From a virus: 37,199 bases of DNA. Made by a program: the position numbers and the translations under genes. The notes below the pieces were generated by a model. The model did no database searches. It worked only from the letters and a program-made list of their open reading frames with translations, and had not been told where the DNA came from. How positions within the stretch are numbered: the stretch's first letter is position 1; each line of letters opens with the position of its first letter. This document shows, in pieces, positions 467 to 37,199 of the stretch. The stretch lies in the IMG/VR virus record IMGVR_UViG_3300045589_000097, positions 1 through 37,199 of that record. One strand, given 5' to 3'.

Positions 467-467
467 G

Positions 468-641: not shown

Positions 642-739
642 GGTATACTGTATACGGAGGCCAAATCCTAATCTTTTATTTAATTCACTCTCAATCGTAC
701 GTCTGGCCTCCGGCGCGTCCTTCACCAGACGCGCTTTTT
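620..739 (+). ncRNA. Candidate small-RNA unit A4
   Basis: -35 TTGCTT 620-625, 18-nt spacer, TGgTATACT 641-649. Helix GGAGGCCA 656-663 / TGGCCTCC 704-711. Terminator GCGCGTC 713-719 / GACGCGC 728-734 plus T-run 735-739. Confidence 0.4.
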
Positions 740-747
740 GTTTACAA

Positions 748-1056: not shown

Positions 1057-1239
1057 TCATTTCTCCGCCTCCTCATACATCACTAGCGCAAACAGCATTG
1101 GGACACCATCAGCACCACGTGTTGGCTGGAACTTAATATCAACAATGTTTTTACCTTTTATGAATTCGTTTATTTCTCTTTCAAATTCAGAGCTTGTACA
1201 GGTGTCATTCCAAATATATCTAACTTTCATCTTCGCCAT
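1057..1239 (-). CDS. Hypothetical small protein (60 aa), resembles Cse60/DUF2758-type proteins (recalled, uncertain)
   Basis: ORF-track ORF preceded by GGAGATGG. Sequence MAKMKVRYIWNDT...IVDIKFQ...LFALVMYEE. Confidence 0.5.
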   Translation of the reverse strand: MAKMKVRYIWNDTCTSSEFEREINEFIKGKNIVDIKFQPTRGADGVPMLFALVMYEEAEK

Positions 1240-1288
1240 CTCCTAATCGAATACCGACTACACCTGCGAATAAGTCTAGAAATTTCAT
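1220..1288 (-). pseudogene. Remnant of the N-terminus of a cytosine-5 DNA methyltransferase (22 codons)
   Basis: Translates to MKFLDLFAGVVGIRLGDGEDES*. FLDLFAGxxGxRL matches C5-MTase motif I (DLFAGxGGxRL) with the GG degraded. The frame stops inside the next gene's start region. Confidence 0.3.
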
Positions 1289-1296
1289 GCGACCGT

Positions 1297-1668
1297 TCAC
1301 TCCTTCACCTCCAATTTCACGATTTCTCCGGTTTCCTCCACGCGCCAGACACCTAGCAACCATGCAAGGGCAAAAGTGTCAGCATCAAAAGCTATCCACG
1401 CCAAAGCGCCTGTTACTACGGTTCGTGTGATGCCTAGGTCTCTTACCATTCCAAGAACATCAACAAGATCACGATGGTACTTCCGCAATTCTTTGATATA
1501 ATCACCAACCATTTTCGGAATCATCGGCAGATCATCTGGCAAGGCGGCATCATAACGTTTCTTGTACCCATCCAGTGTTTCCCTAGGCCAACCATTGAAG
1601 AACACTTGATAGCCAGCAAGACGGTTCCAAACCGCCTCAAACACGTCCCGCTTCGTCTCATTGCTCAT
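1297..1668 (-). CDS. Hypothetical early protein (123 aa)
   Basis: ORF-track ORF. RBS GAGGTGA lies upstream of the ATG at 1668. Confidence 0.7.
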   Translation of the reverse strand: MSNETKRDVFEAVWNRLAGYQVFFNGWPRETLDGYKKRYDAALPDDLPMIPKMVGDYIKELRKYHRDLVDVLGMVRDLGITRTVVTGALAWIAFDADTFALAWLLGVWRVEETGEIVKLEVKE

Positions 1669-1834
1669 CGTCAGTCACCTCTAACTGTTCCTTGTTGTAA
1701 TCGATGATACGTTTATAGTTGTTGTTCGCCTGCCAGGCGCAATCATACAGACCACACAGATCAAGTTTGTTGATTGCATTGTTAGCGGCATCGATGGCCT
1801 TTTGCGCAGCGTCTATGTCAGCTTTAGTCGTCAT
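1658..1834 (-). CDS. Hypothetical small protein (58 aa, MTTKADIDAAQKAIDAANNAINKL...)
   Basis: Below the ORF-track cutoff. ATG at 1834 is preceded by GAGGTGA. It overlaps both neighbours by a few nt, which suggests translational coupling. Confidence 0.5.
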   Translation of the reverse strand: MTTKADIDAAQKAIDAANNAINKLDLCGLYDCAWQANNNYKRIIDYNKEQLEVTDDEQ

Positions 1835-2369
1835 CGTCAGTCACCTCTTCTTTTTCGCAGTCTTGCAAGCTGTAATGCTCAATCTCTGCTTCGGTGAACT
1901 GAGCCAATGAATCACTTTGGGCTTTGCTATGAAGAAACCATGCTACGGTTCCGGGATGAACCGTAGATCGGTATGCTTGAGCAAAATACTCATGCTTCTT
2001 CTTATCGACAAGCACTTTGTAGACCAGATACTTCTTCTTCACGGTGAAGCCGTTGACGTAAGCATTCATCAGCAGCTCTTCGTCATCATCAGAATTACCA
2101 GTATTATCAGTAATATACTTTGCTGGCCGCGTATAATCGTGTGCACGTTCAACGATTTTGGCTTGTTCCTTGCTCAACAATACCTTTTCAGGCTCCTCAA
2201 CGAGCGTGACAACGTGGCCGCCATGATCACTAACTACGTCTTTAGCATCTTCCTCTTCAGCCGTGGTCGGGCAAGATGCGAAGGTTAATTCAAAGAAGCC
2301 ATCTCGATCTGCAAAGTCCCAGTATTTGCCTTCATCGTTCTTAACCGCGTACAGCTTTTCTTCGCTCAT
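1824..2369 (-). CDS. Hypothetical acidic early protein (181 aa)
   Basis: ORF-track ORF. Its start overlaps the stop of the upstream gene. Confidence 0.7.
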   Translation of the reverse strand: MSEEKLYAVKNDEGKYWDFADRDGFFELTFASCPTTAEEEDAKDVVSDHGGHVVTLVEEPEKVLLSKEQAKIVERAHDYTRPAKYITDNTGNSDDDEELLMNAYVNGFTVKKKYLVYKVLVDKKKHEYFAQAYRSTVHPGTVAWFLHSKAQSDSLAQFTEAEIEHYSLQDCEKEEVTDDDD

Positions 2370-2551
2370 TTTTCGTCCTCCACTTTCTTGATAATCAGTG
2401 GTTCCGGAATATCTACCTTAATGTCATCGCCACGGGTGTTGTGCGATTCCGTGTGCTTGGCCATGTTCTCGTTTATCCATCGGATACACTGAGATTGATA
2501 CTTGGCTCGATAATACTCGGTTTCTGTGTTTAATCCTGCTACTACGTACAT
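2366..2551 (-). CDS. Hypothetical protein (61 aa)
   Basis: ATG at 2551 (MYVVAGLN...) lies 7 nt after GAGAGG. The longer ORF-track start would overlap the upstream gene. Confidence 0.55.
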   Translation of the reverse strand: MYVVAGLNTETEYYRAKYQSQCIRWINENMAKHTESHNTRGDDIKVDIPEPLIIKKVEDEK

Positions 2552-2562
2552 TTGTGTGCCTC

Positions 2563-3027
2563 TCATTTCGCGCTGACTGACTTCACAGCCTGATCTGAAT
2601 AGTCCTTGATGCTCTGCGCGTCTTTGATTGCCTGTGATAATTCATTGTTTGCCTGTTTGGCGGCTTCTAACTGTGATGTAAGGTCGTTGATTGTCTGTTG
2701 CTTAGCATCGACCTCAGCCTGTTTCTGGGCAACTGCTTGCTGGCCTTCAACGATCTTTTGCTGAATCTGGGCATCTTTGTTTGCCATGTCGTTTCCATAT
2801 TGCTGTTTTAGGGCCGCATACTGTGCCTGCGCGTCAGACAACTGATGTTGCAAATCGGACAAGCTAGATTTTGAAGCGTGAATCTTAGCCGTCAGCTTGT
2901 CGATATTGTTTTTGGTCTCCACGATGTTCTGGTGACCTTGCCAAACATTGTCGGCAATGGTGGTTGCACCGGCCCCAAACATAAGTCCTGCTAAAACAGT
3001 TACTGTAAATGTCAATTTTTTATTCAT
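2563..3027 (-). CDS. Secreted or membrane-anchored Q/A-rich coiled-coil protein (154 aa)
   Basis: N-terminal signal/anchor MNKKLTFTVTVLAGLMFGAGATTIA, followed by heptad-like Q/A/K-rich sequence. RBS AAGGAGAAAAAATC lies before the ATG. Confidence 0.7.
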   Translation of the reverse strand: MNKKLTFTVTVLAGLMFGAGATTIADNVWQGHQNIVETKNNIDKLTAKIHASKSSLSDLQHQLSDAQAQYAALKQQYGNDMANKDAQIQQKIVEGQQAVAQKQAEVDAKQQTINDLTSQLEAAKQANNELSQAIKDAQSIKDYSDQAVKSVSAK

Positions 3028-3039
3028 GATTTTTTCTCC

Positions 3040-3405
3040 TTAATCGATCTCTTCGACTTCAACTCTCGGATTAGCTTTGTCAATAAAGAACCGATCTCGC
3101 AGTTCTACAATGTGATCCCAGTTGTCGTTTTCTAAAAATTCAGCCTTTTGCATGCCGTCGAAGATAAACTTGTGCTGAAACGCGATGTTGTCCGGGTCTG
3201 TTCGCTTGTCATACCAGTACCAGTCGAAACTTAGAGGTTTTCCCCATTGAAATTTCACGCCCTGATTCATCGCTTTTCTAACAGCCAACATTACCGTTTC
3301 CGTTGCTTGTTTCTTGACTTTTGCTCCGCCGAACATATTGCCTCGTTCAACCTTGATGTACTGATTAAGAGTCATGAGGGGCAATGGAATAATGATCCTG
3401 TTCAC
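3040..3405 (-). CDS. rusA: RusA-family Holliday junction resolvase (121 aa)
   Basis: Size, position after the replication genes, and the RTDPDNIAFQHKFIFDGM...ENDN acidic motif pattern are typical of RusA. Confidence 0.6.
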   Translation of the reverse strand: MNRIIIPLPLMTLNQYIKVERGNMFGGAKVKKQATETVMLAVRKAMNQGVKFQWGKPLSFDWYWYDKRTDPDNIAFQHKFIFDGMQKAEFLENDNWDHIVELRDRFFIDKANPRVEVEEID

Positions 3406-3656
3406 GCTGGTTTCACGTCCTTCAGATAGTATTGATGTTGCTTGCCATCAACCATTTCAACCGTTGTGATTAGCTCTTTGGGTGCCTTGCCATCAAAAGC
3501 AACTGGCTTGTTGATGTCTTGACGTTCACCTCTGGCGTTGTATCGCTCGATTCTGATGATTCGTGCCACACCGCCAATATCACGCACGCCCATGAATACT
3601 CGATCAGGAACCATAACCAGATCACCAACCATCATTTTCGTTTTAATTGCTTGCAT
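3402..3656 (-). CDS. Hypothetical protein (84 aa)
   Basis: ATG at 3656 lies 8 nt after AGGAGGAA. The upstream part of the ORF-track frame lacks an RBS. Confidence 0.6.
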   Translation of the reverse strand: MQAIKTKMMVGDLVMVPDRVFMGVRDIGGVARIIRIERYNARGERQDINKPVAFDGKAPKELITTVEMVDGKQHQYYLKDVKPA

Positions 3657-3702
3657 TTGAAGATTCCTCCTGTAGTTTCTTGTATTATTCCTCGCTAAAT
3701 AT

Positions 3703-4152
3703 CTAACGACTCGCAATCTCTTCATGGCCGTTGTTGCGGCGGGGCAACTTGATATCAAACTCGCTTGCCACTCGTCTCACGAACGTTGTTGACTTCCCGA
3801 TCTGTTTTGCAACCTCTGTTAGTGTTTTGCTCTTGCTTGCCGCCTCAGAAACTTGTACTGCATACTTCTTACGGTTAGCTTCCCCGCGTTTGTTTACAGC
3901 CTTGATGCTGCTGATCAGTGCGACTGAAGGCATATCTCGATTATCAACACCGGCTACCGCACGTTTCTCGACAATCGCTTTCTTTGATACAACGATCCGG
4001 TTGTTGAACGCTTGCTTTTCGATTTTTGAGAATGCTTCGCTTTCAGAAATGCCTAGCATTGCTGCATTTTCGTAGCGCGTAATCAATTCAGCTTTGAAGT
4101 CGCGCCACACTTTGTCGCCTTGCTTGTATAAACGGACTGTTACTTGTGTCAT
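3703..4152 (-). CDS. Hypothetical protein with a C-terminal HTH-like segment (149 aa)
   Basis: RBS AAGGAGAG before the ATG at 4152. C-terminus contains KTLTEVAKQIGKSTTFVRRVASEF. Confidence 0.65.
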   Translation of the reverse strand: MTQVTVRLYKQGDKVWRDFKAELITRYENAAMLGISESEAFSKIEKQAFNNRIVVSKKAIVEKRAVAGVDNRDMPSVALISSIKAVNKRGEANRKKYAVQVSEAASKSKTLTEVAKQIGKSTTFVRRVASEFDIKLPRRNNGHEEIASR

Positions 4153-4364
4153 GCTTTCTTCTCTCCTTGCTTATCAGGCCTCAGTTCGTCAAGGCTAACG
4201 CCTAGAGCGTCTGCAATTCGTATCATCGTTGAAAATGACGGATCTTTGATGCCACCGGATCTAATCATGTATAAAGTTGATGGGTTGTTGTATCCTGCTA
4301 AATCAGCTAATTCTGGGATGCTAATTGATCGATCATCTAAAATCTTTTGAACAGAATCCCACAT
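4149..4364 (-). CDS. XRE-family HTH DNA-binding protein (71 aa)
   Basis: ISIPELADLAGYNNPSTLYMIRSG...IRIADALGVSLDEL is a classic HTH_3 pattern. RBS GAGGTGA. It is the first gene after a 117-bp divergent control region. Confidence 0.7.
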   Translation of the reverse strand: MWDSVQKILDDRSISIPELADLAGYNNPSTLYMIRSGGIKDPSFSTMIRIADALGVSLDELRPDKQGEKKA

Positions 4365-4398
4365 ATTGTGTCACCTCTATATGTTTAAGTACAGCATG

Positions 4399-4427
4399 TT
4401 GTATGGCGCATGCATTTTTGATATACT
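4399..4427 (+). promoter_or_regulatory. Sigma-A-like promoter for the plus-strand islet
   Basis: TTGTAT 4399-4404, 17-nt spacer, TGaTATACT (-10 at 4422-4427). It is followed by the inverted repeat TTACAGG 4432-4438 / CCTGTAA 4451-4457, a possible operator. Confidence 0.45.
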
Positions 4428-4481
4428 AAATTTACAGGCTACTGTAATGACCTGTAATAAATTAGATGGGGGGGACTATTG

Positions 4482-4601
4482 ATGGCAAAAACGAAAACTA
4501 GTGTTCGCGGAACCCCAACTAAGAAGATCGTTGTTGTAAAACCGTACACTAAGTCAAACGGAACTCGTGTCGGCGGTCACCGGCGTTCAACGCCAAACTA
4601 A
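4482..4601 (+). CDS. Small highly basic protein (39 aa, MAKTKTSVRGTPTKKIVVVKPYTKSNGTRVGGHRRSTPN)
   Basis: ATG at 4482 lies 7 nt after GGGGGGA. It has its own promoter and terminator. Below the ORF-track cutoff. Confidence 0.4.
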   Translation: MAKTKTSVRGTPTKKIVVVKPYTKSNGTRVGGHRRSTPN

Positions 4602-4624
4602 TCTTCAACAGTCTTTAGAATCTC

Positions 4625-4665
4625 CTCCTTCAGGGTATAAGGTTTCCCTGAGGGAGATTTTATTT
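4625..4665 (+). terminator. Intrinsic terminator or attenuator between the small basic ORF and the DUF2513-like gene
   Basis: Stem CTTCAGGG 4628-4635 / CCCTGAGG 4646-4653 (extendable), 10-nt loop, then TTTTATTT. Confidence 0.5.
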
Positions 4666-4692
4666 ACTAACAACGAAAGGAAATTGAAAATC

Positions 4693-5073
4693 ATGAAACT
4701 CAATCCAGACTGTTTACGTGATGTGCTTTTAGTTGTGGAAACCAATGCCTCTACCAGCCAATGGGTAGAAGCAAAAACACTTTTAGATGATCCTAGAATG
4801 AGCTCTTATTCTTACGAAGAGATCGCTTACCATGTACGCCAAGCAAATTGGGCAGGACTTTTAGCTGAAGTTAATTGGTTTATGGACGAAGGGTTTCTAA
4901 TCAAAGACTTGACGCCTAGTGGGCACCAGTTCTTGGCGGACATTCGTGAAGACACCAACTGGAATAAAGTGAAGTCTATTTTGAAAAAAGTTGGTTCGTT
5001 TTCAATTTCTGCGATTACTCAGGCTGCTGCTGGCGTGGTTCAGGCTGATATACAGAAACATCTAGGCCTCTGA
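4693..5073 (+). CDS. DUF2513-like winged-helix protein (126 aa)
   Basis: MKLNPDCLRDVLLVVE...YSYEEIAYHVRQANWAGLL...LTPSGHQFLADIRED matches my recollection of the DUF2513 family. Opposite orientation to the surrounding operons. Confidence 0.6.
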   Translation: MKLNPDCLRDVLLVVETNASTSQWVEAKTLLDDPRMSSYSYEEIAYHVRQANWAGLLAEVNWFMDEGFLIKDLTPSGHQFLADIREDTNWNKVKSILKKVGSFSISAITQAAAGVVQADIQKHLGL

Positions 5074-5203
5074 CAGGAACTAACCACTTCATTTCAACCT
5101 CTACAGGGTCATTCGCCTCAGCTTTGAAGTGGATCTTTTCAACCTGTCCAACCTCAATGCCATTCACAAAAACTTTGCCGTTTTGAATTCGTAGGCTATT
5201 CAT
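5015..5203 (-). CDS. Hypothetical small protein (62 aa)
   Basis: ATGA overlap with the stop of the replication gene. RBS AGAGGA. Its 3' end overlaps the convergent gene 4693-5073. Confidence 0.5.
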   Translation of the reverse strand: MNSLRIQNGKVFVNGIEVGQVEKIHFKAEANDPVEVEMKWLVPVRGLDVSVYQPEPRQQQPE

Positions 5204-6177
5204 TTCGAGTCCTCTTTCTTTCCAAGTGCCTTTAACTGCTCCATCTGCTCGGCTAGTTTAGCTCTGTCTTCCTCAGATACTTTTTTATGCTTGGGCTTGT
5301 AACCGTCCTGCGCCCAGACTGGTAGTTTCTCATTTCGAACTGGATTGCCGTAACGGCGCTGAGGCTGATTAGTTTTGCGTTCACTATCGTTTGCTTCGAC
5401 AGCAGCAACCGTGAGAAGACGCTTGCTTTCCCAGTTTTTCAATATGCCGTTGACGTACTTGTAGTTTCTGACATTGCTTTCAACCGCAGTCCGCAGCGCA
5501 TTTAGGACTAGCTTCTCAGGTTCAGGTGATCCTGCTTTTCGCATGTCAGCAACCCAATCAACAAGGCTTTCTCTGGTGAACGGTGACAGTTGTCCAAACC
5601 CGTTTCCTTCCCAGAAATTGCAAATATCAAGAATTGATGATGACGACGATGACGGTTCTTCAGCAGGCCTCTCTGCTGCCTTGACTGGAGCAGTAGTCTG
5701 TTGTCGTTTAGTTTTGTCTAGTTTAGTCTCGTCTTGTTTAGTGTATGTGCTACTGTGTTGCCTACTAGGTTGTAAACTACCTTGTAAACTGTGTTGCCTA
5801 CTAGGTTGCCTACTGTGTTGCCTACTATTTGACACACTGTCATCATCTTGACCACTAGGTTGCCTACTATCTGACGTACTAAGTTTTCGTGAAATATCGA
5901 TGACTGAGTAGGTCGTTGCCTTAACACCGTTAGTTTGAAAATCTATCAGCCCTGACTGCTTTAGCGCGTTACGGGATTTGACGATGCCCTGACGGCTTAA
6001 ACCAGTCAACGTTTCAAGTGTTCGATTCGGCATATTGAATTCGCTTGGCCAGCCTAGCTGGTTACATTGGTAAACCAGCCCATGCCATAATGCTATCTGT
6101 CCTGTGCTTAGCGGATTAACGCTTTGCTGAATGTAGAACTCTCGAATTAGCTTGAATAAATCCATGCGGTGAGTCAC
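5200..6177 (-). CDS. Replication initiation protein with a C-terminal DnaD/DnaB_2-type domain (325 aa)
   Basis: N-terminal winged-helix-like region, central SRQ/low-complexity repeat, and C-terminal FWEGNGFGQLSPF...NYKYVNGILKNWESKRL typical of DnaD-domain phage replication proteins. Confidence 0.75.
   Translation of the reverse strand: MTHRMDLFKLIREFYIQQSVNPLSTGQIALWHGLVYQCNQLGWPSEFNMPNRTLETLTGLSRQGIVKSRNALKQSGLIDFQTNGVKATTYSVIDISRKLSTSDSRQPSGQDDDSVSNSRQHSRQPSRQHSLQGSLQPSRQHSSTYTKQDETKLDKTKRQQTTAPVKAAERPAEEPSSSSSSILDICNFWEGNGFGQLSPFTRESLVDWVADMRKAGSPEPEKLVLNALRTAVESNVRNYKYVNGILKNWESKRLLTVAAVEANDSERKTNQPQRRYGNPVRNEKLPVWAQDGYKPKHKKVSEEDRAKLAEQMEQLKALGKKEDSK
5706..5868. repeat. Iteron cluster (putative phage replication origin) inside the replication gene
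   Basis: GTTTAGT x3 (5706, 5721, 5736; 15-bp spacing). TTGTAAACT x2 (5770, 5782). GTTGCCTACT x5 (5757, 5793, 5805, 5817, 5859). Confidence 0.5.
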
Positions 6178-6180
6178 CTC

Positions 6181-7092
6181 CTACTCGACCAGATCGTAGA
6201 GGCTGATGATCTGAGTCAGATGCTTAGTTGCCCGGCAATACTCACAGTGCTCACACCGTTTTGGTTCTTCTTCGCCGTTCTTAACGGCTTCAATGCGTGG
6301 CTGTAGTTCCTTAACTCGTTCCAACCAATAGTCCAGCAAATCTTGCGGCATTGAGACCGCCGCTTTATCTGGCGGATCCTGCTTTGATACTGCGATGATG
6401 ACAGGAACGGCTTGAACGCCATATTGCTGTCGAATTAGCTCCTGATACACGGCCATTTGCAGTGGGTAGTTGTAAGCCTCAATGAAAGAACCATAGCGAC
6501 GTTCTTCTGGTAGATAAAAACGCTTGTTGATGTCCATGGTGGTTTTCAAGTCAGCGAAGTATTTATGGTTATCCGCTAAGCAGTCAAGTTTGCCTTTCCA
6601 AGCCACCCCACCGATCTCGCCTTTGACAATGACTTCTTTTTTTCCTTGATAGAACTCTTTGAACTTAGGATCTGTTCGCAAAGTTCTAATCATGTTGTCA
6701 GCAACTTGATATTCTCTTTTGAGCTGTCCTTTTGTTGTACCGCGAGTTGAAATAATCTCTGGATGTTCCTGCTTAAACTTGTTGTGCGCATAGCGGCTTT
6801 GGAAGTAGCTGTGAAGATAGTTGCCGACCAACAAGGCTGTTGGGTCTCGCTTTGGCTTCCACTCGCCCTTCAATTCCGCCAAAGCTTCAGCCTCGCAGGC
6901 CATGAACTTCTTGAACCAAGTCGGTGACTGATACTGCCAATCCATACGATTCGTGTAATAGTTCCTACTTGTTAGCTTGATTCTGGAAGAGGTTCGAAAC
7001 TTCTTTGTCGGTAACTGGCCGATGTTCAGCTCGGTCTGCTTGACTGGTTTCTTTTGGCTTGGCTTCCTTGGCTTCTTTGGTATTTGCAGCAT
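6181..7092 (-). CDS. PD-(D/E)XK-type exonuclease partner of RecT (DUF3799/YqaJ-like), 303 aa
   Basis: KLTSRNYY N-terminal motif, DLKTT core, C-terminal CxxCxxC cluster. ATG at 7092 lies 7 nt after AAGGAGGAG and overlaps the recT 3' end by 128 nt in another frame. The start is uncertain. Confidence 0.6.
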   Translation of the reverse strand: MLQIPKKPRKPSQKKPVKQTELNIGQLPTKKFRTSSRIKLTSRNYYTNRMDWQYQSPTWFKKFMACEAEALAELKGEWKPKRDPTALLVGNYLHSYFQSRYAHNKFKQEHPEIISTRGTTKGQLKREYQVADNMIRTLRTDPKFKEFYQGKKEVIVKGEIGGVAWKGKLDCLADNHKYFADLKTTMDINKRFYLPEERRYGSFIEAYNYPLQMAVYQELIRQQYGVQAVPVIIAVSKQDPPDKAAVSMPQDLLDYWLERVKELQPRIEAVKNGEEEPKRCEHCEYCRATKHLTQIISLYDLVE

Positions 7093-7840
7093 GTTTCGGC
7101 TCCTCCTTCGGCTTGCTATCAATCAGATCATCAAAGTTTGGTGTCACGTCCTTAGGTTCCGCGTTGTCGTACTCATCGGCAGTGGTTTCATTGACCGCTC
7201 CCAGCAAAAGGTCGTTGTCAGAACTGGAGTTGATGAAGAACTTGGCAGCCCGGTTGAGCACCGTTCGCTTAGCCATTTCCTCGGGGAACTCTTGCTGAAC
7301 CTTTTTGGTTTTGGCATGACTCCAACTTTGATCAATCTGCTTCCTGGTCATGATGGTGAAGTTTTCAACACCGTTGTTGTCAACAATGACAGCAAATGCT
7401 GCGGCAATAGCGTTGTCTTGGTTCTCAATGCGTGGCTCAAAGACTTTTACCACAGTGCGCCCCTTATCGGATCCAATCTGGAACTTGTCGCCTTCACGAA
7501 CAACCTCGGCCCAAACATCCTGCACATTATCCAAACGCTTCAGGATCGCCAGGCTACCAAAGTATGAGCGCATCAACGTCAGGTCTTTACCGTAAGGAAT
7601 GAAGTAAACCTGATTCTTAGCTGGGCTGAGACCCTGAATCACCATATTCAGCAATGCTTTAGCTTGCGATTGCGGGGTAGTTTTATCTAACAGTGATGGC
7701 CCTTTGCTGTTATCTGATAGCGTGAGCCAAGCCGAATTCAGCGCATTGCTAGGGCTATAGTTCGCCGGAAGTTTCAAGCCTTCATGCTTCTGCATCTCTG
7801 CGATGCGGTTGTTGACACTTGCTACAATTTCATTTGCCAT
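6965..7840 (-). CDS. recT: RecT-family single-strand annealing recombinase (291 aa)
   Basis: NALNSAWLTL...QVYFIPYGKDLTLMRSYFG...VREGDKF pattern. RBS TAGGAGGAA. Paired with the downstream nuclease. Confidence 0.8.
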   Translation of the reverse strand: MANEIVASVNNRIAEMQKHEGLKLPANYSPSNALNSAWLTLSDNSKGPSLLDKTTPQSQAKALLNMVIQGLSPAKNQVYFIPYGKDLTLMRSYFGSLAILKRLDNVQDVWAEVVREGDKFQIGSDKGRTVVKVFEPRIENQDNAIAAAFAVIVDNNGVENFTIMTRKQIDQSWSHAKTKKVQQEFPEEMAKRTVLNRAAKFFINSSSDNDLLLGAVNETTADEYDNAEPKDVTPNFDDLIDSKPKEEPKHAANTKEAKEAKPKETSQADRAEHRPVTDKEVSNLFQNQANK

Positions 7841-7851
7841 TTCAATTCCTC

Positions 7852-8022
7852 CTAGTAGTCGGCGGCAATTGCTACACCGCCAAGTTCGTTCAATATATAT
7901 TCGCGGATTTCATCTGGATCATCTTTGATCGTGTCACCTTCAGGCCCGATATTCGTGATAACTGCTTCGCCTGAATAAATGGGATCACCCTTCCAATCAA
8001 GCCTTACAATCGTGGTATCCAT
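7852..8022 (-). CDS. Small strongly acidic early protein (56 aa)
   Basis: ATG at 8022 abuts the upstream stop. Its stop sits within the recT RBS. 13 D/E versus 4 K/R. Below the ORF-track cutoff. Confidence 0.45.
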   Translation of the reverse strand: MDTTIVRLDWKGDPIYSGEAVITNIGPEGDTIKDDPDEIREYILNELGGVAIAADY

Positions 8023-8023
8023 T

Positions 8024-8242
8024 TCACTTTGCCGCCTTTCGTGATAAACTTGGGCTATAAATTAATTTGCTTTGCTTTTCATTTCCCGTGGTTGCCGCCA
8101 TGGGATTTTTTTGTGCGCATTTATTGAGCATGATCAAGCTAAGTCGAAACATCCAATCCCAGCCACGATCTGCATGTCCTTTGTAAATGAGGTTCTCGAC
8201 CTGATCGTGCACGTCTTGCCAACACTCTTTTGTATCTCGCAT
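8024..8242 (-). CDS. Hypothetical early protein (72 aa)
   Basis: ORF-track ORF with RBS TAGGAGAAAAG. Confidence 0.55.
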   Translation of the reverse strand: MRDTKECWQDVHDQVENLIYKGHADRGWDWMFRLSLIMLNKCAQKNPMAATTGNEKQSKLIYSPSLSRKAAK

Positions 8243-11757: not shown

Positions 11758-12771
11758 ATGCAAAAAAGAAAACGAGTCATTTGGGTGGACATAGCAAAAG
11801 GCATCACTATTTTTCTTGTTGTATTTGGCCACGCTATCCAAGGCATAGTGTCATCTAAAGGTCTTGATATTAGTGGACCAAACTGGTCGCTTTTTTTTGG
11901 GAAACAATTAATTTATGGTTTCCATATGCCTGCATTTTTTGTAATGAGCGGTTTTTTTACAGGATATATTCATCGGAAATTTATTGGCACCCTTACGGAA
12001 AAGGCAGTTCGCTTGCTTAAGCCTTATTTTGTTTGGAGCTTCATTACCGCCTCAGTGATGCAGGCTTTTTCCTCCTATACGAACTTTGGAATGGGCATTA
12101 GAGATTTCTTGATGTCTCCTATAATACCGTTCTCAGAATACTGGTATTTATACGTTCTTTTCTTTATTAGCTTATTTTACTTAATAATATATCGTATCTT
12201 TGGTTATCGAACAGTTTGGGCTGGCCTATTTGCTGGAATTATTCTTTTTTTAGCAGAACCAATACTGCCGAATGTCTGGATCTTTAAAACCTTTTCCAGA
12301 TTTCTAGTTTATTACGCGATTGGCGCTATAATCTTTAAGCGACTCGATCTTGTGAACAAAATTTTCTATAAAAAAGAAAGCATGATATTGCTTGCATCCA
12401 TAATAGCATTTTCGATTGTCAACATCATTTTATATGAGTTGCTTATGTATAATAGCCATATAGCCTTGTACTACTACTCATTTGTTACATCATTTTTTGG
12501 AGCCGCCTTTATATTTGCTCTGTCAATGAAAGTTGGCCAATTAAATAATCCGCTGACAAAATTTTTCCAATGGCTTGGGTACAATTCAATGCAAGTCTAT
12601 GTTATGCATTTGGTCCCCTTAGCAGGAGCCAGAGTCGTCTTAATGAAACTGGGAATTATAAGTAACTATTGGATGTTGTCTGTTACCATTACTATAATAT
12701 CGTTGGCAATTTGTTGCGTAGCAATTATTATCATTAAAAAAATTGGCATATGCAAGTTACTGTTTGGCTAG
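11758..12771 (+). CDS. Acyltransferase-3 family integral membrane O-acyltransferase (337 aa)
   Basis: N-terminal VIWVDIAKGITIFLVVFGH motif and about 10 TM segments. RBS AAGGGGAAG. Visibly more A+T-rich than the flanking phage DNA. Confidence 0.8.
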   Translation: MQKRKRVIWVDIAKGITIFLVVFGHAIQGIVSSKGLDISGPNWSLFFGKQLIYGFHMPAFFVMSGFFTGYIHRKFIGTLTEKAVRLLKPYFVWSFITASVMQAFSSYTNFGMGIRDFLMSPIIPFSEYWYLYVLFFISLFYLIIYRIFGYRTVWAGLFAGIILFLAEPILPNVWIFKTFSRFLVYYAIGAIIFKRLDLVNKIFYKKESMILLASIIAFSIVNIILYELLMYNSHIALYYYSFVTSFFGAAFIFALSMKVGQLNNPLTKFFQWLGYNSMQVYVMHLVPLAGARVVLMKLGIISNYWMLSVTITIISLAICCVAIIIIKKIGICKLLFG

Positions 12772-14517: not shown

Positions 14518-15702
14518 TTACCTGATATACAGGCTTTCGCCCGGATAGATCAGGCTGTAGATTGATTTGCCGTTGTTAGCGGCTAACGTGTACATGCTGA
14601 TGCCATACTTTCTGGCAATGCTCCAGAAGCTGTCACCAGAGCGGACCGTATAATACGTGTGGCTTACCGGTGAGGTGTATCCAGACGAACGCGAGCCATA
14701 GCTCTCCCCACCATTCACGCCCAAGGCAACATAATGATACCTGCCTGAGTAGCTGAGATAACGTGCCCAAACATATGTGCCACGGATATACACGTGATCA
14801 TAAATCACACTTTCACCGGGTGCATAGCTACCAACGGATGCATAGCCGGTGCCGGCACCAGTGCGAATGTTGACCGTCGTGGACGGCTTGAAAACACCCG
14901 CTTGCGCATAGTCGGTATCACTGGCTGCATTCGATTTCGCTGGTTGGCTTGGTGCCGGTGTTACAGGCACCGACGGAGTTGCTGGCTGCTTCGAGTATCC
15001 ATTATCGGTCACACCAAGCAGATCAATGTTACCATCGAGGCCTTGCGACAGCCCAAATGCGCTCGTGTACTGCCAAATAGCTACCCCATCCATACTCGGA
15101 AAATAACCGTAGTCTGGTTTGGTAGTTGGTAGATAATCACGGTAAGCAGCAATCCAAAGGCTGTTAGGAAATTCTTTCAGGATACGCTGATAATCGACGT
15201 GTGCCAATGTATATGGCTTGTAACTGTAATACATTGGCGTGTAGCCTTCTGAACGAATGCGCCGCATGCCAGCTAAAATTGCATCCGTATTAGCTGCCAT
15301 ATTGCCAGAAGCACCATCTTCGTAGTCCAAAGCAACGATGCTTCCCTTTGGTGTCTGCGCTTTGATACGAGGCATATAACGGTCAAGTGCTTCCAACCCC
15401 AACTGGCTACTTGCACCAACACCATACCAGATGTAGCTATGCACACGTTTTCCTGCCGCCTTGGCACTAGCAATTTGGCTATCATACGTCCACTGATCGA
15501 TGTAAGTGCCACCGTAAGTGCCGCCAATCTGAGCTATGACGAACTTGTCTTGATCTGTTCCATATCGTCCACTTGCTCCCTGATACTTTGACCAATCAGG
15601 TCCCTGATCTCCCTTGGCCGCATTGGCCTGCGATGGCAAGGCAAAAGAAATAGCCGCCAAGAAGGCGACTACCAAGGTGATTAGCTTAGTTTTTAGTTTC
15701 AT
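14518..15702 (-). CDS. Endolysin: signal peptide, GH25 muramidase, SH3b-like and LysM domains (394 aa)
   Basis: MKLKTKLITLVVAFLAAISFALPSQANA signal. GPDWSKYQG...FVIAQIGG GH25 start. P/T/S linker. C-terminal YYTVRSGDSFWSIARKYGISM...PGESLYI LysM. Confidence 0.9.
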   Translation of the reverse strand: MKLKTKLITLVVAFLAAISFALPSQANAAKGDQGPDWSKYQGASGRYGTDQDKFVIAQIGGTYGGTYIDQWTYDSQIASAKAAGKRVHSYIWYGVGASSQLGLEALDRYMPRIKAQTPKGSIVALDYEDGASGNMAANTDAILAGMRRIRSEGYTPMYYSYKPYTLAHVDYQRILKEFPNSLWIAAYRDYLPTTKPDYGYFPSMDGVAIWQYTSAFGLSQGLDGNIDLLGVTDNGYSKQPATPSVPVTPAPSQPAKSNAASDTDYAQAGVFKPSTTVNIRTGAGTGYASVGSYAPGESVIYDHVYIRGTYVWARYLSYSGRYHYVALGVNGGESYGSRSSGYTSPVSHTYYTVRSGDSFWSIARKYGISMYTLAANNGKSIYSLIYPGESLYIR

Positions 15703-33118: not shown

Positions 33119-34417
33119 TCACCTCAATCCTAGATTTTTGATTGTCTGAATTCGTTCTTGGTTGCTCATGTAATGGCCGGCAGTTGTGAATACGAAAAGG
33201 CTCATTGCGTATCGTAATGCGTCAATCGCGTGATTATTCGCATCGACTGGCGTGTTCGTCCAGTTATCGAATTTGTCTTTTGCGTAAACATACGTGTTGA
33301 ACTCCTCAAGCAGTCCCTTAACACGCGGGTGAACAACAAAATGGTAAGACTGCATATACTGAATACCCTGTGAAACACTGTCTTTGCCTTTGCCAGCCGG
33401 TCTAATGTTTGGAACACCATGTGCCATAGTAAGCTCGCCAATCAGGTTTGCCGCAGCTTGATCGGCCATGATAGGAAGCCCATAAGCTTTATGACTTGCG
33501 AGCTCTTGAGCTATCTGTCCGGTAAGCAGTCCTTGCTGGTAAAACTCATCATAGATATACACAACTCTGTTCTGCTGATCGATTGCCATAAACTCGCCTG
33601 CTGTCGGGTCATGTTTGAACCCGAAGTCTAGGCCAACCGCTTTTGGCAGTGCTGCAATATCTTCCATACTGAAGTCACGCTGCTCGAACAGTCCATCAAA
33701 CACAAGCCCTTCTGCAATGCCCCAGTCTCCGTATACGGCAACACGAGCACGGTTAGGGTTGCGCTTGATCATGTCTTTTAGGCTTGCGATATAGTCATCA
33801 TCAAGATATGGGTTGTCCTTGTATGTGGTAGTGAACGACTTAGATCGTGGGTTCTTTGTGTCTTCATCGAAGAACTCACGCTTTAGCCAATGCTGATCAC
33901 TCCACGGGTTGAACGTGATAATCGACTGGTAATAGCCATCAGGATCGTCGATTTCACCACGCATGGTTTCTTCAACGGTCTTGAATGCGTCCAGCGATTT
34001 CAGCTCATACGCTTCCTCCCACCATGCACGAGCGAGCACACCAGTTGTTGGTTGCAATGAAGTGACGGCCAGTGGTTTATCCATGCCACGAAAAAACACC
34101 TTCTGGCCGGTTGGCTTAAAGGTGATTTCCAGTGGTGACAGTGTGAACTTGAATAGATCATAAACGCCAAGACGCATGGCTGCCTGTTGAATGGTGCTGT
34201 ATGTCGAATCCTTATTTGTATACGCGTACTGCCTGAGCACAATCCAGTTGACATAGGGGTGCATGATGATTTGCATAATCACATCCTCGGCAACAGAGAA
34301 AGACTTGCGCGATCCACGACTGCCCTTGTATGTCAGGTAGCGTGTTCTGTCATTGTAAAGCGGTGCGTAAGCCTTAGGGACGATTGAATCCAGATCGATA
34401 TTAATCTGCACTGTCAT
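33119..34417 (-). CDS. terL: Terminase large subunit (432 aa)
   Basis: ATG at 34417 after GGAGG (the ORF-track upstream extension lies inside terS). Walker-like YKGSRGSRKS and a nuclease C-terminus ending DANNHAIDALRY. Confidence 0.9.
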   Translation of the reverse strand: MTVQINIDLDSIVPKAYAPLYNDRTRYLTYKGSRGSRKSFSVAEDVIMQIIMHPYVNWIVLRQYAYTNKDSTYSTIQQAAMRLGVYDLFKFTLSPLEITFKPTGQKVFFRGMDKPLAVTSLQPTTGVLARAWWEEAYELKSLDAFKTVEETMRGEIDDPDGYYQSIITFNPWSDQHWLKREFFDEDTKNPRSKSFTTTYKDNPYLDDDYIASLKDMIKRNPNRARVAVYGDWGIAEGLVFDGLFEQRDFSMEDIAALPKAVGLDFGFKHDPTAGEFMAIDQQNRVVYIYDEFYQQGLLTGQIAQELASHKAYGLPIMADQAAANLIGELTMAHGVPNIRPAGKGKDSVSQGIQYMQSYHFVVHPRVKGLLEEFNTYVYAKDKFDNWTNTPVDANNHAIDALRYAMSLFVFTTAGHYMSNQERIQTIKNLGLR

Positions 34418-34952
34418 CGCCTCCGTCTTGATGAATTGGCTTGATGTTGATTGTGATGTTGCTAGTGTCTTCGCTAGTTTCACGTTTGGCCTTGGCTTCC
34501 ATGATGTCAGCCTCAGCTTTGGACTTGCGAACATCAGCCTTAGTTTTCTCAATATCAGTAATAATCTTCGTTAGCTGAGCATTGAGCAGCTCATCATTGC
34601 CAGGGTAACGTTTCAACAATTCACGTCCTGCTGCCATGCGGTCTTTGATGCTTGGCTCGTTTTCAACAGCATCTGCACCGTCTGGAGTGCTAACTATAAT
34701 TGTCTCTTTTGCCTCTCCACGGAGAACGGTAGTGAAGTATTTAAGTACCTCAGCAGCCTTGGCAATCTTGTCAGACTCGATGCGTTTCATGCGTTCAGCA
34801 ATATATGATTTTATACCGACATTCTCCGACAATTTTTCAGCATGAGAACGCGCGTAATTTTTAGAATATCCCGCTTCAATTGCTGATTGATACTTATTTC
34901 CTGACTTTATGAAGTTATCAGCAAATGCACGCTGTTTTGGGCTTAGTTTCAT
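34401..34952 (-). CDS. terS: Terminase small subunit (183 aa)
   Basis: MKLSPKQRAFADNFIKSGNKYQSAIEAGYSKNYARSHAEKL is the typical Terminase_4/P27-type N-terminus. Confidence 0.8.
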   Translation of the reverse strand: MKLSPKQRAFADNFIKSGNKYQSAIEAGYSKNYARSHAEKLSENVGIKSYIAERMKRIESDKIAKAAEVLKYFTTVLRGEAKETIIVSTPDGADAVENEPSIKDRMAAGRELLKRYPGNDELLNAQLTKIITDIEKTKADVRKSKAEADIMEAKAKRETSEDTSNITINIKPIHQDGGDDSAD

Positions 34953-35098: not shown

Positions 35099-36247
35099 TC
35101 ACACATAGTAAATGGCACGGGTATCATGATCGCTGTATTCGACCAGCTCAAACGTTTTGTGAGCAACCACGCCAATGTCATCAGTCCACTTGTCGGTTGG
35201 CTTGCGTGTCGACACTTGACGCTGAACAAATCCGCCTAGGTCTTTGCTCATCTCTGAATGCAGATGCCCCGTGAACAGCTCGCGATTCTGTGCTGTGCCT
35301 AACATGAAGCCGAACTCATCTAGGTATTTTGCAAGGTAGTTGTTCTTACCCTTGTCTCCGTGAGTGGCGCCAATGAAGTTATGGCCTAACATTGTGCCTT
35401 TGTAATGCTTCAGTGATATATCCCAAGTGATGTTCGACTGGTTGCTGTAGGCACGTTTCAATAGACGTGCAAACATATATCCAACTGACGGGTCGTGGTT
35501 ACCTGGCGCATACATGACCTCACACTCATTGGCGTTCTTAATGATTGCTTCAATCAGTGTCTCGAAGTATTGCTCCATTTCGTTCACAGTCTCGCCCAGA
35601 TCGGTTGTTTCGAGCTGTGTACCCTTTGCTGTGGTCGAGTTGATGTTATCCACATGAGCCAGATCACCGCCCAGAATGAGCAATATTTTGGCGTAGTGGC
35701 CGCGTTGAATGATCTCTAGTTGCCGTTTAAGCGATTCAGCATAGATGTCAAACGTGTGACCGTTGAAATGCGTGTCGAAAGCAGGAATGACCAGATAGCG
35801 ATCTGATTCCACAAAAATAGGAGCCTTAGCTTGGTATGGCTCCTTGTGTGTGATGATGTCATTCATCAATGATTCATATTGTTCCGCTTCAACTAACGGC
35901 CTGATTTGTATCTTGCTCTGGTACAACGTTGCTTCAGGCGTCTGCTTCCAGAAGTTGCTTGTGGCACGTACAAGTTCCCACTTAGTGTAATCATACCCGT
36001 GAGCTTCCAGAACCTCTCTAGGCGTCATTTTGTGGCCTCTGACAACCTTTAGAATGGTTTCACTGGACTGTGTACCGTCTGAATCGTATTCGTTCTTGAC
36101 TGGTTTTTGGAACTCGATGCCAAGCCGTTTTGCTTTGCCTTGAAGCGCGTCGTAGCTAATTCCTAGCTTGTCGGCCGTTTCTCGTCTAGTAAAGCCTTCA
36201 GAGGCGAGCTTCCTAATGTCACCGATCTGTTCATCTGTCCATTGCAT
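35099..36247 (-). CDS. N-terminal HTH fused to a calcineurin-like metallophosphoesterase (382 aa); first gene of the late operon
   Basis: HTH FTRRETADKLGISYDALQGKAKRLG. Phosphoesterase motifs DTHFNG, GGDLAH, GNHD, GATHGD, GHLH occur in canonical order. RBS GGAGG. Confidence 0.75.
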   Translation of the reverse strand: MQWTDEQIGDIRKLASEGFTRRETADKLGISYDALQGKAKRLGIEFQKPVKNEYDSDGTQSSETILKVVRGHKMTPREVLEAHGYDYTKWELVRATSNFWKQTPEATLYQSKIQIRPLVEAEQYESLMNDIITHKEPYQAKAPIFVESDRYLVIPAFDTHFNGHTFDIYAESLKRQLEIIQRGHYAKILLILGGDLAHVDNINSTTAKGTQLETTDLGETVNEMEQYFETLIEAIIKNANECEVMYAPGNHDPSVGYMFARLLKRAYSNQSNITWDISLKHYKGTMLGHNFIGATHGDKGKNNYLAKYLDEFGFMLGTAQNRELFTGHLHSEMSKDLGGFVQRQVSTRKPTDKWTDDIGVVAHKTFELVEYSDHDTRAIYYV

Positions 36248-36360
36248 CTACTCGCCTCCGAAAATATAATGTCCGTGAGCAGTTTGATGACGCTGCTCAC
36301 ATTCTCATGAAGAACTTCCCGAGTTCTTAAGCCCTCGGATTCGGCCCCGAGAGCTTTTTT
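36242..36360 (+). ncRNA. Candidate small-RNA unit B1
   Basis: TTGCAT 36242-36247, 17 nt, TATAAT 36265-36270. Hairpins GTGAGCAG 36275-36282 / CTGCTCAC 36293-36300 and AAGAACT 36310-36316 / AGTTCTT 36322-36328. Terminator 36331-36354 plus T6 at 36355-36360. Confidence 0.45.
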
Positions 36361-36361
36361 G

Positions 36362-36475
36362 TTGCTTAAAAAATTTCGATGAGTTAGAATTAAATTGTTC
36401 CCAACAGATACTCATTTTCACTCCTCTGTAATACCCTATCTTTAGGCTCTCGGCCCCCAACCGAGGGCTATTTTT
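36362..36475 (+). ncRNA. Candidate small-RNA unit B2
   Basis: TTGCTT 36362-36367, 17 nt, TAGAAT 36385-36390. Terminator GCTCTCGG 36446-36453 / CCGAGGGC 36461-36468, then TTTTT 36471-36475. Confidence 0.45.
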
Positions 36476-36611
36476 GTATCTTCTATAAGGAATGTGCTAA
36501 TATATATGCGTGAGTAGTGTCTTTTCTCCTCCAAGTCAACCGCTGCTGCTCACACAAGTATTTCGTTTTTTCATTCTTTTGGCTCTTGGACTGGTCTCTG
36601 AGGGCTTTTTT
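36474..36611 (+). ncRNA. Candidate small-RNA unit B3
   Basis: TTGTAT 36474-36479, 18 nt, TGcTAATAT 36495-36503. Stem GTGAGTAG 36510-36517 / CTGCTCAC 36546-36553 with CTCCTCC in the loop. Terminator 36582-36605 plus T6. Confidence 0.45.
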
Positions 36612-36612
36612 A

Positions 36613-36717
36613 TTCCGATTTATTGCTACATGTGTTATACTCTTTTTCGGTACCGTTGTTTCACCTCAGTAAACACCGGTAGCTAGGCCCTCAGTTAATC
36701 GCTCAGAGGGCCTTTTT
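36613..36717 (+). ncRNA. Candidate small-RNA unit B4
   Basis: TTCCGA 36613-36618 (weak), 17 nt, TGtTATACT 36633-36641. Stem 36651-36661 / 36671-36681. Terminator GGCCCTC 36686-36692 / GAGGGCC 36706-36712 plus TTTTT. Confidence 0.4.
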
Positions 36718-36724
36718 GTTGCAC

Positions 36725-36757
36725 AAAAATAGCACCTCACCGTTTGGCGGAGTGCTA
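36725..36757 (-). terminator. Minus-strand intrinsic terminator closing the arpU / tRNA-like unit, back to back with the B4 terminator
   Basis: The minus strand reads TAGCAC...GTGCTA (36757-36752 / 36735-36730) followed by TTTTT (36729-36725). Confidence 0.45.
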
Positions 36758-36799
36758 TAGTCTGGTGCCTACTCCTATGGTTTACCAGACTTGATCCAA

Positions 36800-36876
36800 T
36801 GCAACCGGCGGGATTTGAACCCGCGACACCGACGCACGCGCGAACTATAGTCGGTGAGCCTATCTCAATCGGTTGC
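36800..36876 (-). tRNA. tRNA-like element (77 nt) with an aberrant anticodon arm; possible pseudo-tRNA or intron-bearing tRNA
   Basis: Perfect 7-bp acceptor GCAACCG/CGGTTGC. D arm TGAG-ATAGG-CTCA. T arm GCGGG-TTCAAAT-CCCGC. The anticodon stem CCGAC/GTCGG encloses a 16-nt loop, so no anticodon can be assigned. Confidence 0.4.
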
Positions 36877-36939
36877 TGCTCGCTCTCCCAGTGTCAGATG
36901 GGGTCATCGCAAGATGTGTCCGGTCGCTAAACTGGACAA

Positions 36940-37004
36940 TGTGGCATGCGGGAATCGAACCCGCCTGACTATCTCAGCCAGTCCTCATTGCCACGCCTTG
37001 CCAC
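36940..37004 (-). ncRNA. Second, more degenerate tRNA-like module
   Basis: T arm GCGGG-TTCGATT-CCCGC. Acceptor ATGCCAC pairs with a duplicated GTGGCAA (A-A mismatch). D-arm-like CTGA-GATAG-TCAG abuts the T arm. No anticodon arm. Confidence 0.3.
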
Positions 37005-37106
37005 AGCTTTATCATCACTGAGGCTCGGAGGAAAAATGCGGTGTCTCAGGTTTCTCACCTTTGGCACAATACAATCATATGACGGAAAAGCGTGTTTTTT
37101 GTTGCA

Positions 37107-37199
37107 TCATTGTTGCACGGATGTTGCAACTAGTTTCACTAGCGGACATATTTCAGCAAAAGCATAGAGAGCTTCTTGTGTTTGTCGCCAAAGGGTCGT
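37107..37199 (-). CDS. arpU: ArpU-family regulator, 3' portion (37165-37199 duplicates 1-35)
   Basis: Same frame as 386->1 across the circular junction. Ends ...AFAEICPLVKLVATSVQQ with TGA at 37109-37107. Confidence 0.65.
   Translation of the reverse strand, partial: TTLWRQTQEALYAFAEICPLVKLVATSVQQ
37165..37199. repeat. Terminal direct repeat, identical to 1-35
   Basis: Exact 35-bp match to the start of the window. Confidence 0.9.

Follow-up and report, generated by a model that had tools for sequence, protein, structure and literature searches.

A mobile array of plus-strand small RNA genes at the junction of arpU and the late operon in a temperate Lacticaseibacillus phage

Some phages carry short constitutive RNAs opposite a lytic control gene, among them P22 sar, lambda OOP and anti-Q, which damp lytic functions and are single RNAs lying over the coding region or the ribosome-binding site (RBS) of their target. 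Small RNAs (sRNAs) of prophages have been examined in depth in E. coli and Salmonella but, to our knowledge, hardly at all in lactic acid bacteria, and we know of no phage for which an ordered array of several distinct sRNA genes has been described. Here we characterize such an array, called array 1, at positions 36242-36717 of the IMG/VR virus record IMGVR_UViG_3300045589_000097, a stretch of 37,199 nucleotides (nt) that we analyzed as a whole and refer to as the window. Array 1 is situated between arpU, the gene of the late activator, and the first gene of the late operon. The region is four independent sRNA genes, units A to D, on the plus strand, which is also the strand of the lysogeny genes; for units A, B and C the transcripts come from a relative, the strain Lacticaseibacillus casei BL23, and that of unit D is predicted.

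The closest described RNAs are those of BL23 itself. The sRNA catalogue of this strain by Mickute et al. (2021, BMC Biol 19:129, PMC8220740) contains three minus-strand RNAs that adjoin the CsbD family gene LCABL_RS02850. These RNAs, sLCB577.3-, sLCB577.2- and sLCB577.1-, are the same RNA genes as unit types A, B and C. They were catalogued anonymously, as 'intergenic' or 'antisense', and the article assigns them no name, phage context, array, unit D, second array or function; our literature search found no later paper on them. The original prediction, that no described phage module has this layout, thus holds for the array as such, which had not been catalogued as a phage array, and fails for the individual RNAs, which were already on record as anonymous sRNA candidates.

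More distant parallels are found in other bacteria. In Listeria monocytogenes, the CU-rich motifs of LhrC1-5 bind the Shine-Dalgarno (SD) sequence of target mRNAs and block translation independently of Hfq (Sievers et al. 2014, PMC4132741). The units of array 1 resemble them in being several sibling sRNAs of about 100 nt with UCCC-type motifs in loops, in single-stranded stretches and in a terminator loop, but have no sequence or structure homology to them (no Rfam hit). The LhrC genes, of which lhrC1-4 are adjacent, are chromosomal and LisRK-controlled, whereas the array units are phage cargo, mutually divergent and antisense to a phage leader. Trans-acting prophage sRNAs of enterobacteria, such as Pas, DicF and IsrK, are likewise accessory and horizontally moving, and variable between strains in presence, copy number and sequence. 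However, they are single genes of Hfq-using Gram-negative hosts, whereas here ordered arrays of two to six units are found in a Gram-positive host, at the junction of the late activator and the late operon. In contrast to sar, OOP and anti-Q, four separate units (plus three or four in a second array) are spread along a non-coding leader, and relatives can do without the block. As far as our searches show, the features that are new with respect to the literature searched are the ordered, modular and mobile sRNA-csbD array, its place at the activator/late-operon junction, unit D, the second array and the way array 1 relates to the ArpU box. The units are thus of a known kind, sRNAs encoded by a prophage, with a new organization and position.

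The original prediction divided the plus strand of this region into four consecutive units, each consisting of a promoter, a structured RNA and a terminator, and every sequence feature listed in it was verified at its coordinates (Table 1). The -10 hexamers sit 6 nt ahead of the predicted starts, in the manner of sigma-A-type promoters; in units A, C and D, in the related unit types E and F and in two units of the second array, 6 nt separate the -10 from the first base of the 5' stem. The -35 hexamers are weak, with TTG as the only match, and because of this a generic promoter scan called none of the array 1 promoters. The -35 of unit A coincides in part with the opposite-strand ATG of the first late gene. 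Predicted transcripts were defined to run from the seventh nt after the -10 through the end of the T-run. The predicted fold of sRNA A has an energy of -29.8 kcal/mol (z -3.8) and that of sRNA D -27.6 kcal/mol (z -5.0); the plus-strand z-scores of units B and C are -2.9 and -1.4, and in most cases the plus strand folds more stably than its complement.

Table 1. Positions of the array units and of other features in the window.
Feature	Position	Strand	Description
Unit A promoter	36242-36270	+	TTGCAT 36242-36247, 17 nt, TATAAT 36265-36270
Unit B promoter	36362-36390	+	TTGCTT 36362-36367, 17 nt, TAGAAT 36385-36390
Unit C promoter	36474-36503	+	TTGTAT 36474-36479, 18 nt, extended -10 TGcTAATAT (TAATAT 36498-36503)
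Unit D promoter	36613-36641	+	TTCCGA 36613-36618, 17 nt, extended -10 TGtTATACT (TATACT 36636-36641)
sRNA A	36277-36360	+	84 nt; 5' hairpin GAGCAG/CUGCUC, second hairpin with UCCC loop, terminator
sRNA B	36397-36475	+	79 nt; conserved core AUACUCAUUUUCACUCCUC (anti-AUG, anti-SD); terminator with C-rich loop
sRNA C	36510-36611	+	102 nt; 12-bp 5' stem, loop UUCUCCUCCAAGUCAA; U-rich linker; terminator
sRNA D (predicted)	36648-36717	+	70 nt; 5' stem with CACCUCAGU loop; terminator
Terminators of array 1	36329-36360, 36445-36475, 36581-36611, 36685-36717	+	GC-rich hairpin and T-run
Conserved intrinsic terminator	36721-36758	-	ATAGCACTCCGCCAAACGGTGAGGTGCTAT and T-run; faces the unit D terminator
Candidate ArpU box	37100-37128	-	TGCAACA three times, 11-nt period, just after the arpU stop codon
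Array 2	405-740	+	layout of array 1; on the other side of arpU, directly upstream, opposite strand; three or four units
First late gene	35099-36247	-	GcrA-like N-terminus and metallophosphatase domain; TerS and TerL come next
TerS	34401-34952	-	
TerL	33119-34552	-	
Endolysin	14518-15702	-	

Under a strict definition of a terminator (a stem of at least 8 bp with at most one mismatch and at least four GC pairs, followed by a T-run), the region 36242-36717 holds four on the plus strand and none on the minus strand, against a mean of 0.098 and a maximum of 2 in 1000 dinucleotide shuffles. Seven of the nine strict plus-strand terminators of the 37-kb window are located in array 1 or in the block 433-735. 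The enrichment appears under the strict definition only, the count of a loose scan being not above that of its shuffles. As had been proposed, the terminator stems look paralogous, forming one repeat family (GAGGGCTTTTTT) with spacings of 114, 137 and 106 nt, and a GTGAG(C/T)AG...CTGCTCAC stem is common to units A and C (named B1 and B3 at first). The expected CU-rich runs are present as well: ACTCCTC at 36420-36426, CTCCTCC at 36526-36532 and CACCTCAGT at 36662-36670. In the predicted folds the CU-rich loops are UCCC in unit A, CACUCCUC in unit B and UCUCCUCC in unit C; the loop of unit D holds CACCUCAGU, and the minimum-energy fold pairs part of this loop. The terminator loop of unit B is CCCCCAA.

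Neither a coding function nor a known RNA family accounts for the region. No plus-strand open reading frame (ORF) with an RBS was found in it. A hydrophobic plus-strand ORF at 36517-36672 was considered as a type I toxin and rejected: it is without an RBS, spans the third terminator and the fourth promoter, and is truncated in relatives. A type I or III toxin-antitoxin system would have an adjacent toxin ORF, for a small hydrophobic peptide or a ToxN-like protein, that the RNA controls, and none was found, the neighboring gene, where present, being csbD. Rfam searches of the whole window at gathering thresholds yielded no known family matching array 1 on either strand, and searches of 36150-37199 and 1-1000 at E up to 10 yielded no credible family, the LhrC, csRNA and RsaE models included.

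Transcription of units A to C is supported by published observations in BL23. The homologue of unit A, sLCB577.3-, is 86 nt long (promoter TTGCAT / AAATATAAT, terminator GGCTCTCGGATTCGGCCCCGAGAGCTTTTTT) and was found at 148-459 counts per million (CPM); that of unit B, sLCB577.2-, is 79 nt long (TTGCTT / AGCTAAAAT, terminator AGCTCTCGGCCCCCAACCGAGGGCTTTTTT), was found at 1,057-8,123 CPM and was verified by Northern blotting; and that of unit C, sLCB577.1-, is 101 nt long (TTTAGT / TGCTATTAT, terminator GGCCCTTGGACTGGTCTCTGAGGGCTTTTTT) and reached about 10,200 CPM in two of three libraries and 2,779 in the third (PMC8220740). The -10 of the unit B homologue is TAAAAT in BL23 (PMC8220740), as opposed to TAGAAT in the window. 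The promoter and terminator strings of the article, and its Northern probe in reverse complement, were found in the homologues of units A, B and C; the probe of sLCB577.2- matches the unit B variant of relatives, and the window copies differ from those of BL23 by two to three substitutions per terminator.

The BL23 coordinates were mapped via a contig, L176, that contains every published BL23 string. The 5' ends fall at TATAAT-ggccgt/GAGCAG in unit A, TAAAAT-taaatt/GTTCC in unit B and TATTAT-gtagtc/GTGAG in unit C (the slash marks the start), which are the equivalents of 36277, 36397 and 36510 in the window and lie 6 nt after the homologous -10; the 3' ends lie in the T-runs. The observed lengths of 86, 79 and 101 nt compare with predicted lengths of 84, 79 and 102 nt for A, B and C. 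The discrete plus-strand RNAs of 60-110 nt that had been foreseen are thus found for the BL23 homologues of three units, by sRNA sequencing and, for unit B, by Northern blotting, whereas unit D is absent from BL23 and is predicted only. The three homologues were detected in BL23 cultures by sRNA sequencing in three libraries, and the accessible part of the catalogue mentions no induction of these cultures. The same catalogue holds an 85-nt late-strand RNA, sLCB577+, with no called promoter or terminator and equivalent to about 36338-36422 on the minus strand. It bridges the gap between sRNAs B and A, with each end inside a complementary region, and may be a product of sense-antisense duplex processing.

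The -10 hexamers and hairpins are conserved among 16-41 distinct homologues per unit. The -10 of unit A is invariant in 32 homologues and that of unit B at five of its six positions in 41; the promoter of unit C is invariant at eight of 11 positions in 35 homologues and that of unit D at ten of 11 in 16. In every unit the -10 is among the most conserved segments (major-allele frequency 0.95-1.0). In units A and C it stands at 0.96-1.0 and the next 6 nt are the most variable segment (0.80-0.82), a contrast that is lacking in units B and D. The terminator hairpins are among the best-conserved parts (0.94-0.985), and the anti-SD loop of unit C is at least 90% invariant across 16 nt.

Covariation was one of the checks suggested with the original prediction. 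Some of the changes in the helices are compensatory; with sequences this similar, the formal statistics of covariation are weak. The unit B terminator has compensatory changes at four pairs; in the unit A terminator GCCCTCGG/CCGAGGGC alternates with GCTCTCGG/CCGAGAGC, and the window has a mismatched intermediate. In unit C, 97.5% of the cells are paired, versus 37-51% with the 3' partners slid, and the covariation score stands out (8 of 500 column shuffles reach it). Many helix changes are from G-U to Watson-Crick pairs. Since G-U pairs alternate with Watson-Crick pairs, the helices of units B to F are 98-99.8% canonical on the plus strand versus 76-91% on the minus strand (99% and 87%, respectively, in unit D), and this strand asymmetry is more informative than the column-shuffle covariation of unit C.

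Comparison with phage records by BLAST showed that 36265-36720 is an indel among relatives. BH1 and the R-series phages of L. rhamnosus and L. casei share the block at 95-97% identity; it is partly present in JNU_P10, and absent from J-1, PL-1, CL1/2, iLp1308, phiAT3, T25, Lc-Nu and Lrm1. Scans of genomes and of IMG/VR recovered about 100 distinct versions of this slot; they used seed-based patterns instead of a degenerate terminator pattern, which had returned 120 loci, mostly by chance. The cassette order A-B-C-D-csbD-F is conserved, with units present or absent; type E takes the place of C/D in some phages, csbD occurs alone in others, and the window has A-B-C-D. The left edge of the slot is the RBS of the first late gene and the right edge is the conserved minus-strand terminator (36758-36721), which is kept in nearly all relatives and stands 14-40 nt from the late-gene RBS in empty slots.

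The csbD-like gene, of 72 aa (Pfam CsbD, 1.3e-12), is on the cassette strand and has the same promoter/RBS/terminator layout; it forms part of the plus-strand cassette array in many prophages (for example L013, L014, L029 and L176). An A-B-C-csbD-F array is also found between insertion sequence (IS) elements on the conjugative L. paracasei plasmid pMGB0734-1 (L307, NZ_CP064305.1, 2814-3830), where there is no late operon, just 170 bp of the late gene. With its own promoters and terminators, its place between conserved phage genes and its variable presence among close relatives, array 1 is an accessory, mobile cargo ('moron') cassette of temperate Lacticaseibacillus phages. The joints at 36355-36367, 36712-36724 and 37095-37107 (TTTTTTGTTGC[A/T]) repeat the third repeat of the candidate ArpU box together with its A-run (TGCAACAAAAAA, minus strand), and could be either sites at which recombination adds or removes cassettes or additional half-sites for ArpU.

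The second array, array 2, has terminators at 433-459, 509-532, 615-636 and 712-735 on the plus strand, four versus 0.1 expected, and extended -10s TGgTATAAT, TGaTATACT, TGcTATACT and TGgTATACT, with hexamers starting at 405, 471, 539 and 644; the T-runs lead straight into the extended -10s. Its first promoter overlaps the translation start region of arpU. The predicted RNAs span 417-536, 551-641 and 656-740, and in the last two units the -10 is followed by 6 nt and a 5' stem, GGAGATGCTT/AAGCATCTCC and GGAGGCC/GGCCTCC. Array 2 includes very short RNAs, barely more than a terminator. Homologues detected in BL23 are sLCB573.6- (117 nt), sLCB573.5- (196 nt; a shorter form measures about 92 nt) and sLCB573.2- (107 nt). 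Elements of array 2 are commoner than those of array 1 among these phages.

The position of array 1 relative to the late promoter can be judged from the work of Quiles-Puchalt (2013, PMC3753634), in which ArpU, RinA and LtrC bind three 7-nt direct repeats just distal to their own gene, and the intergenic region carries a terminator and the late promoter. The TGCAACA repeats of the window are a candidate ArpU operator, because their number, length and position match those of the published repeats. Beyond them there is a -10, TATGAT, at 37069-37064 on the minus strand, and the 5' end of the BL23 RNA sLCB574.1+ is the equivalent of about 37058. Late transcripts would accordingly start at about 37058, some 810 nt upstream of the first late ATG. 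With the start upstream of array 1, late RNA would cross the array in antisense, its probable path leading through two tRNA-like elements and the terminator 36758-36721 before the array. The original prediction took all units to be antisense to the late leader; their opposite-strand position stands and the candidate ArpU box makes the relation plausible, whereas the leader itself is deduced, not proven. The units overlap this putative leader and not the RBS or the coding region, sRNA A starting 30 nt upstream of the ATG. In empty slots the terminator is so close to the RBS (14-40 nt) that no promoter would fit between them, and late expression would need read-through or antitermination. This layout of a terminator in the late leader resembles that of lambda PR'-tR'.

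The tRNA-like elements at 36797-36876 and 36941-36994 on the minus strand have a 7-bp acceptor stem, a T-arm (GGTTCRAWTCC) and aberrant anticodon regions. ARAGORN found no tRNA in the window, and the only Rfam hits are weak tRNA-like or tmRNA-type matches on the minus strand at 36797-36994. Relatives have 'tRNA-???' genes with 2-nt anticodons, or real tRNA-Met/Ile, comparably placed between arpU and the late genes. In BL23, the 3' end of sLCB574.1+ is that of the acceptor in the homologue of the second element, and sLCB574.4+ begins just past another tRNA-like 3' end, which suggests tRNA-type processing of the late leader.

We propose that the array RNAs may be prophage-cargo regulators that pair with their targets via conserved CU-rich anti-SD loops, a proposal for which we consider the chances to be even. 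CU-rich copies of the 16S anti-SD, the stretches that are best exposed and conserved in the RNAs (UCCC in A, CAUUUUCACUCCUC in B, UCUCCUCC in C and CACCUC in D), would pair with the RBS of target mRNAs, most likely host mRNAs, and occlude them, and Hfq would not be needed. LhrC, RsaE and the streptococcal csRNAs would be the precedents in other Firmicutes. Each RNA would also be a perfect antisense partner of the late-operon leader, the presumed late promoter being upstream of the array. Base pairing in trans is favored because the loops are exposed and conserved, and because the cassette persists without the late operon and travels with a stress gene, csbD. Within the phage genome the seeds of B, C and D have exact or near-exact complements at the antisense locus only, and with no second complementary site there the targets should be in the host, if the RNAs act in trans. 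Whole-sRNA duplexfold runs against 188 start regions gave inflated and uninformative energies. A 12-bp match between an array 2 RNA and the TerS RBS is within the estimated chance expectation, and duplexes of the loops alone with 33 start regions and with those of csbD, arpU and the first late gene are at about 1-3 standard deviations of background. Control through a CiaR box, which in the streptococcal csRNAs is TTTAAG-N5-TTTAAG upstream of the -10, was considered and rejected: the arrays have no match with up to two mismatches, and the rest of the window has four, as many as expected by chance.

Several observations weigh against action in trans, or against parts of the picture on which it depends. 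Target scans of the phage genome gave nothing that rose over background. Anti-SD runs on the plus strand are SD-like runs on the minus strand, so the motif alone is strand-blind. Each array has its first promoter on top of the start region of the gene behind it, an arrangement that looks built for control in cis, and the array RNAs match none of the LhrC, csRNA and RsaE models of Rfam. Unit D remains a prediction from sequence. Conservation of the loops is modestly above that of the linkers (0.92 vs 0.84). Finally, just one of the 22 pairs of unit C changes on both sides, and the pair-count measures of this unit are no higher than in column shuffles.

The main alternative is that the two arrays act in cis, as an antisense and transcriptional-interference lock by which array 2 would silence arpU and array 1 the late operon in the lysogen. 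Head-on promoters would collide with read-through transcription, duplexes of the sRNAs with leader RNA that gets past the minus-strand terminator would trigger cleavage, and trans targets would be unneeded. Each of the two key points of lytic control has an array in its 5' leader, with the first promoter of that array over the adjacent RBS or start codon; the late start and the candidate ArpU box, both upstream of array 1, imply that late RNA must cross it, and the antisense leader is the sole complementary site in the phage genome; the RNAs were detected in BL23 cultures with no induction mentioned in the accessible text, and sLCB577+ ends inside B- and A-complementary regions like a product of duplex processing. 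However, array 1 is missing from many close relatives, where the terminator alone adjoins the RBS, so it is not needed for late control; the cassette is retained on an IS-flanked plasmid fragment that has no late operon and travels with csbD; and a perfect antisense partner needs no conserved loops or 5' stems. On balance we find this explanation possible, if doubtful. It is compatible with pairing in trans, and the two do not exclude each other. A combination of both, to which we give a rather low probability, is a two-sided antisense 'fence' around arpU together with retuning of host translation in lysogens. In such a fence seven or eight constitutive head-on sRNA genes would tile the leaders of arpU and the late operon and, with the leader terminator and the tRNA-like leader elements, would set the threshold and timing of the switch from lysogeny to lysis, while the same RNAs, mimicking the 16S anti-SD, would also retune host translation.

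If the RNAs had no function at all, the array could still serve as a set of insulators, its terminators blocking plus-strand transcription that comes in from csbD, for instance, or from the lysogeny side and would otherwise run antisense into arpU and the early genes; promoters and RNAs would then be by-products of duplicated cassette ends. The stems look paralogous and the joints share TTTTTTGTTGCA, which fits duplication of cassette ends, the terminator hairpins are among the best-conserved parts of the units, and array 2 has very short RNAs with little besides a terminator. Yet a single terminator would suffice, the loops are conserved, the RNAs are abundant and stable (about 10,000 CPM for unit C in BL23), and it would be left unexplained why the -10 positions of four promoters are invariant and keep a constant distance to a 5' stem, which makes this account improbable. 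Poorer still are the prospects of a functional minus strand, with hairpins of the late-mRNA leader or with an SD-like GAGGAGTGAAAATG that starts a 36-aa protein or leader peptide from 36413 to 36305. Late transcripts must cross the region, and the ORF has a strong SD at an ideal spacing to its ATG and is kept in most variants in a version of 29-39 aa. Its variable columns, however, are distributed 10/12/10 over codon positions 1/2/3, which is no coding signature, and it is truncated to 6-18 aa or frameshifted in some relatives; on these grounds this small ORF was rejected. In addition, it overlaps the unit B promoter, which explains its conservation, the helices lose 8-24% of their canonical pairs on the minus strand, T-runs follow the hairpins on the plus strand only, and the abundant BL23 RNAs are on the equivalent of the plus strand. 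We consider a minus-strand function highly improbable.

Three of these RNAs are abundant in a widely used probiotic and dairy species, and their function is therefore directly testable; the presence or absence of the array among similar phages provides natural controls. The position between ArpU and its target genes makes the array a candidate handle on spontaneous prophage induction, which is a problem in dairy fermentation. If the CU-rich loops act in trans, the units would be lysogenic-conversion RNAs that reprogram host translation; a fence around arpU, if true, would amount to a phage decision device made of several sRNAs, for which no counterpart has been described.

The window covers the complete genome of a temperate siphophage of Lacticaseibacillus, which is circularly permuted and has identical 35-nt end repeats (1-35 = 37165-37199). 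All lytic genes are on the minus strand and the lysogeny genes on the plus strand, the latter comprising a helix-turn-helix repressor, an ImmA-like peptidase, an acyltransferase and an integrase. The arpU gene crosses the junction of the window and belongs to the ArpU family TIGR01637 (47.2 bits vs a cut-off of 43.1); from its stop codon (about 37107) to the first late ATG (36247) there are about 860 bp of non-coding DNA. The acyltransferase-3 family gene (11758-12771, plus strand), which separates the ImmA/repressor pair from the integrase, is probably a moron for lysogenic conversion by surface modification. Isolated plus-strand elements of a hairpin and a T-run also occur within the minus-strand early region, at 8040-8112 and 4590-4665. 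The hairpin and T-run at 8084-8105 has CTATAAAT ahead of it and could be another short antisense RNA; a comparable RNA of BL23 is sLCB568-, a 59-nt antisense sRNA of a prophage-like region that was verified by Northern blotting.

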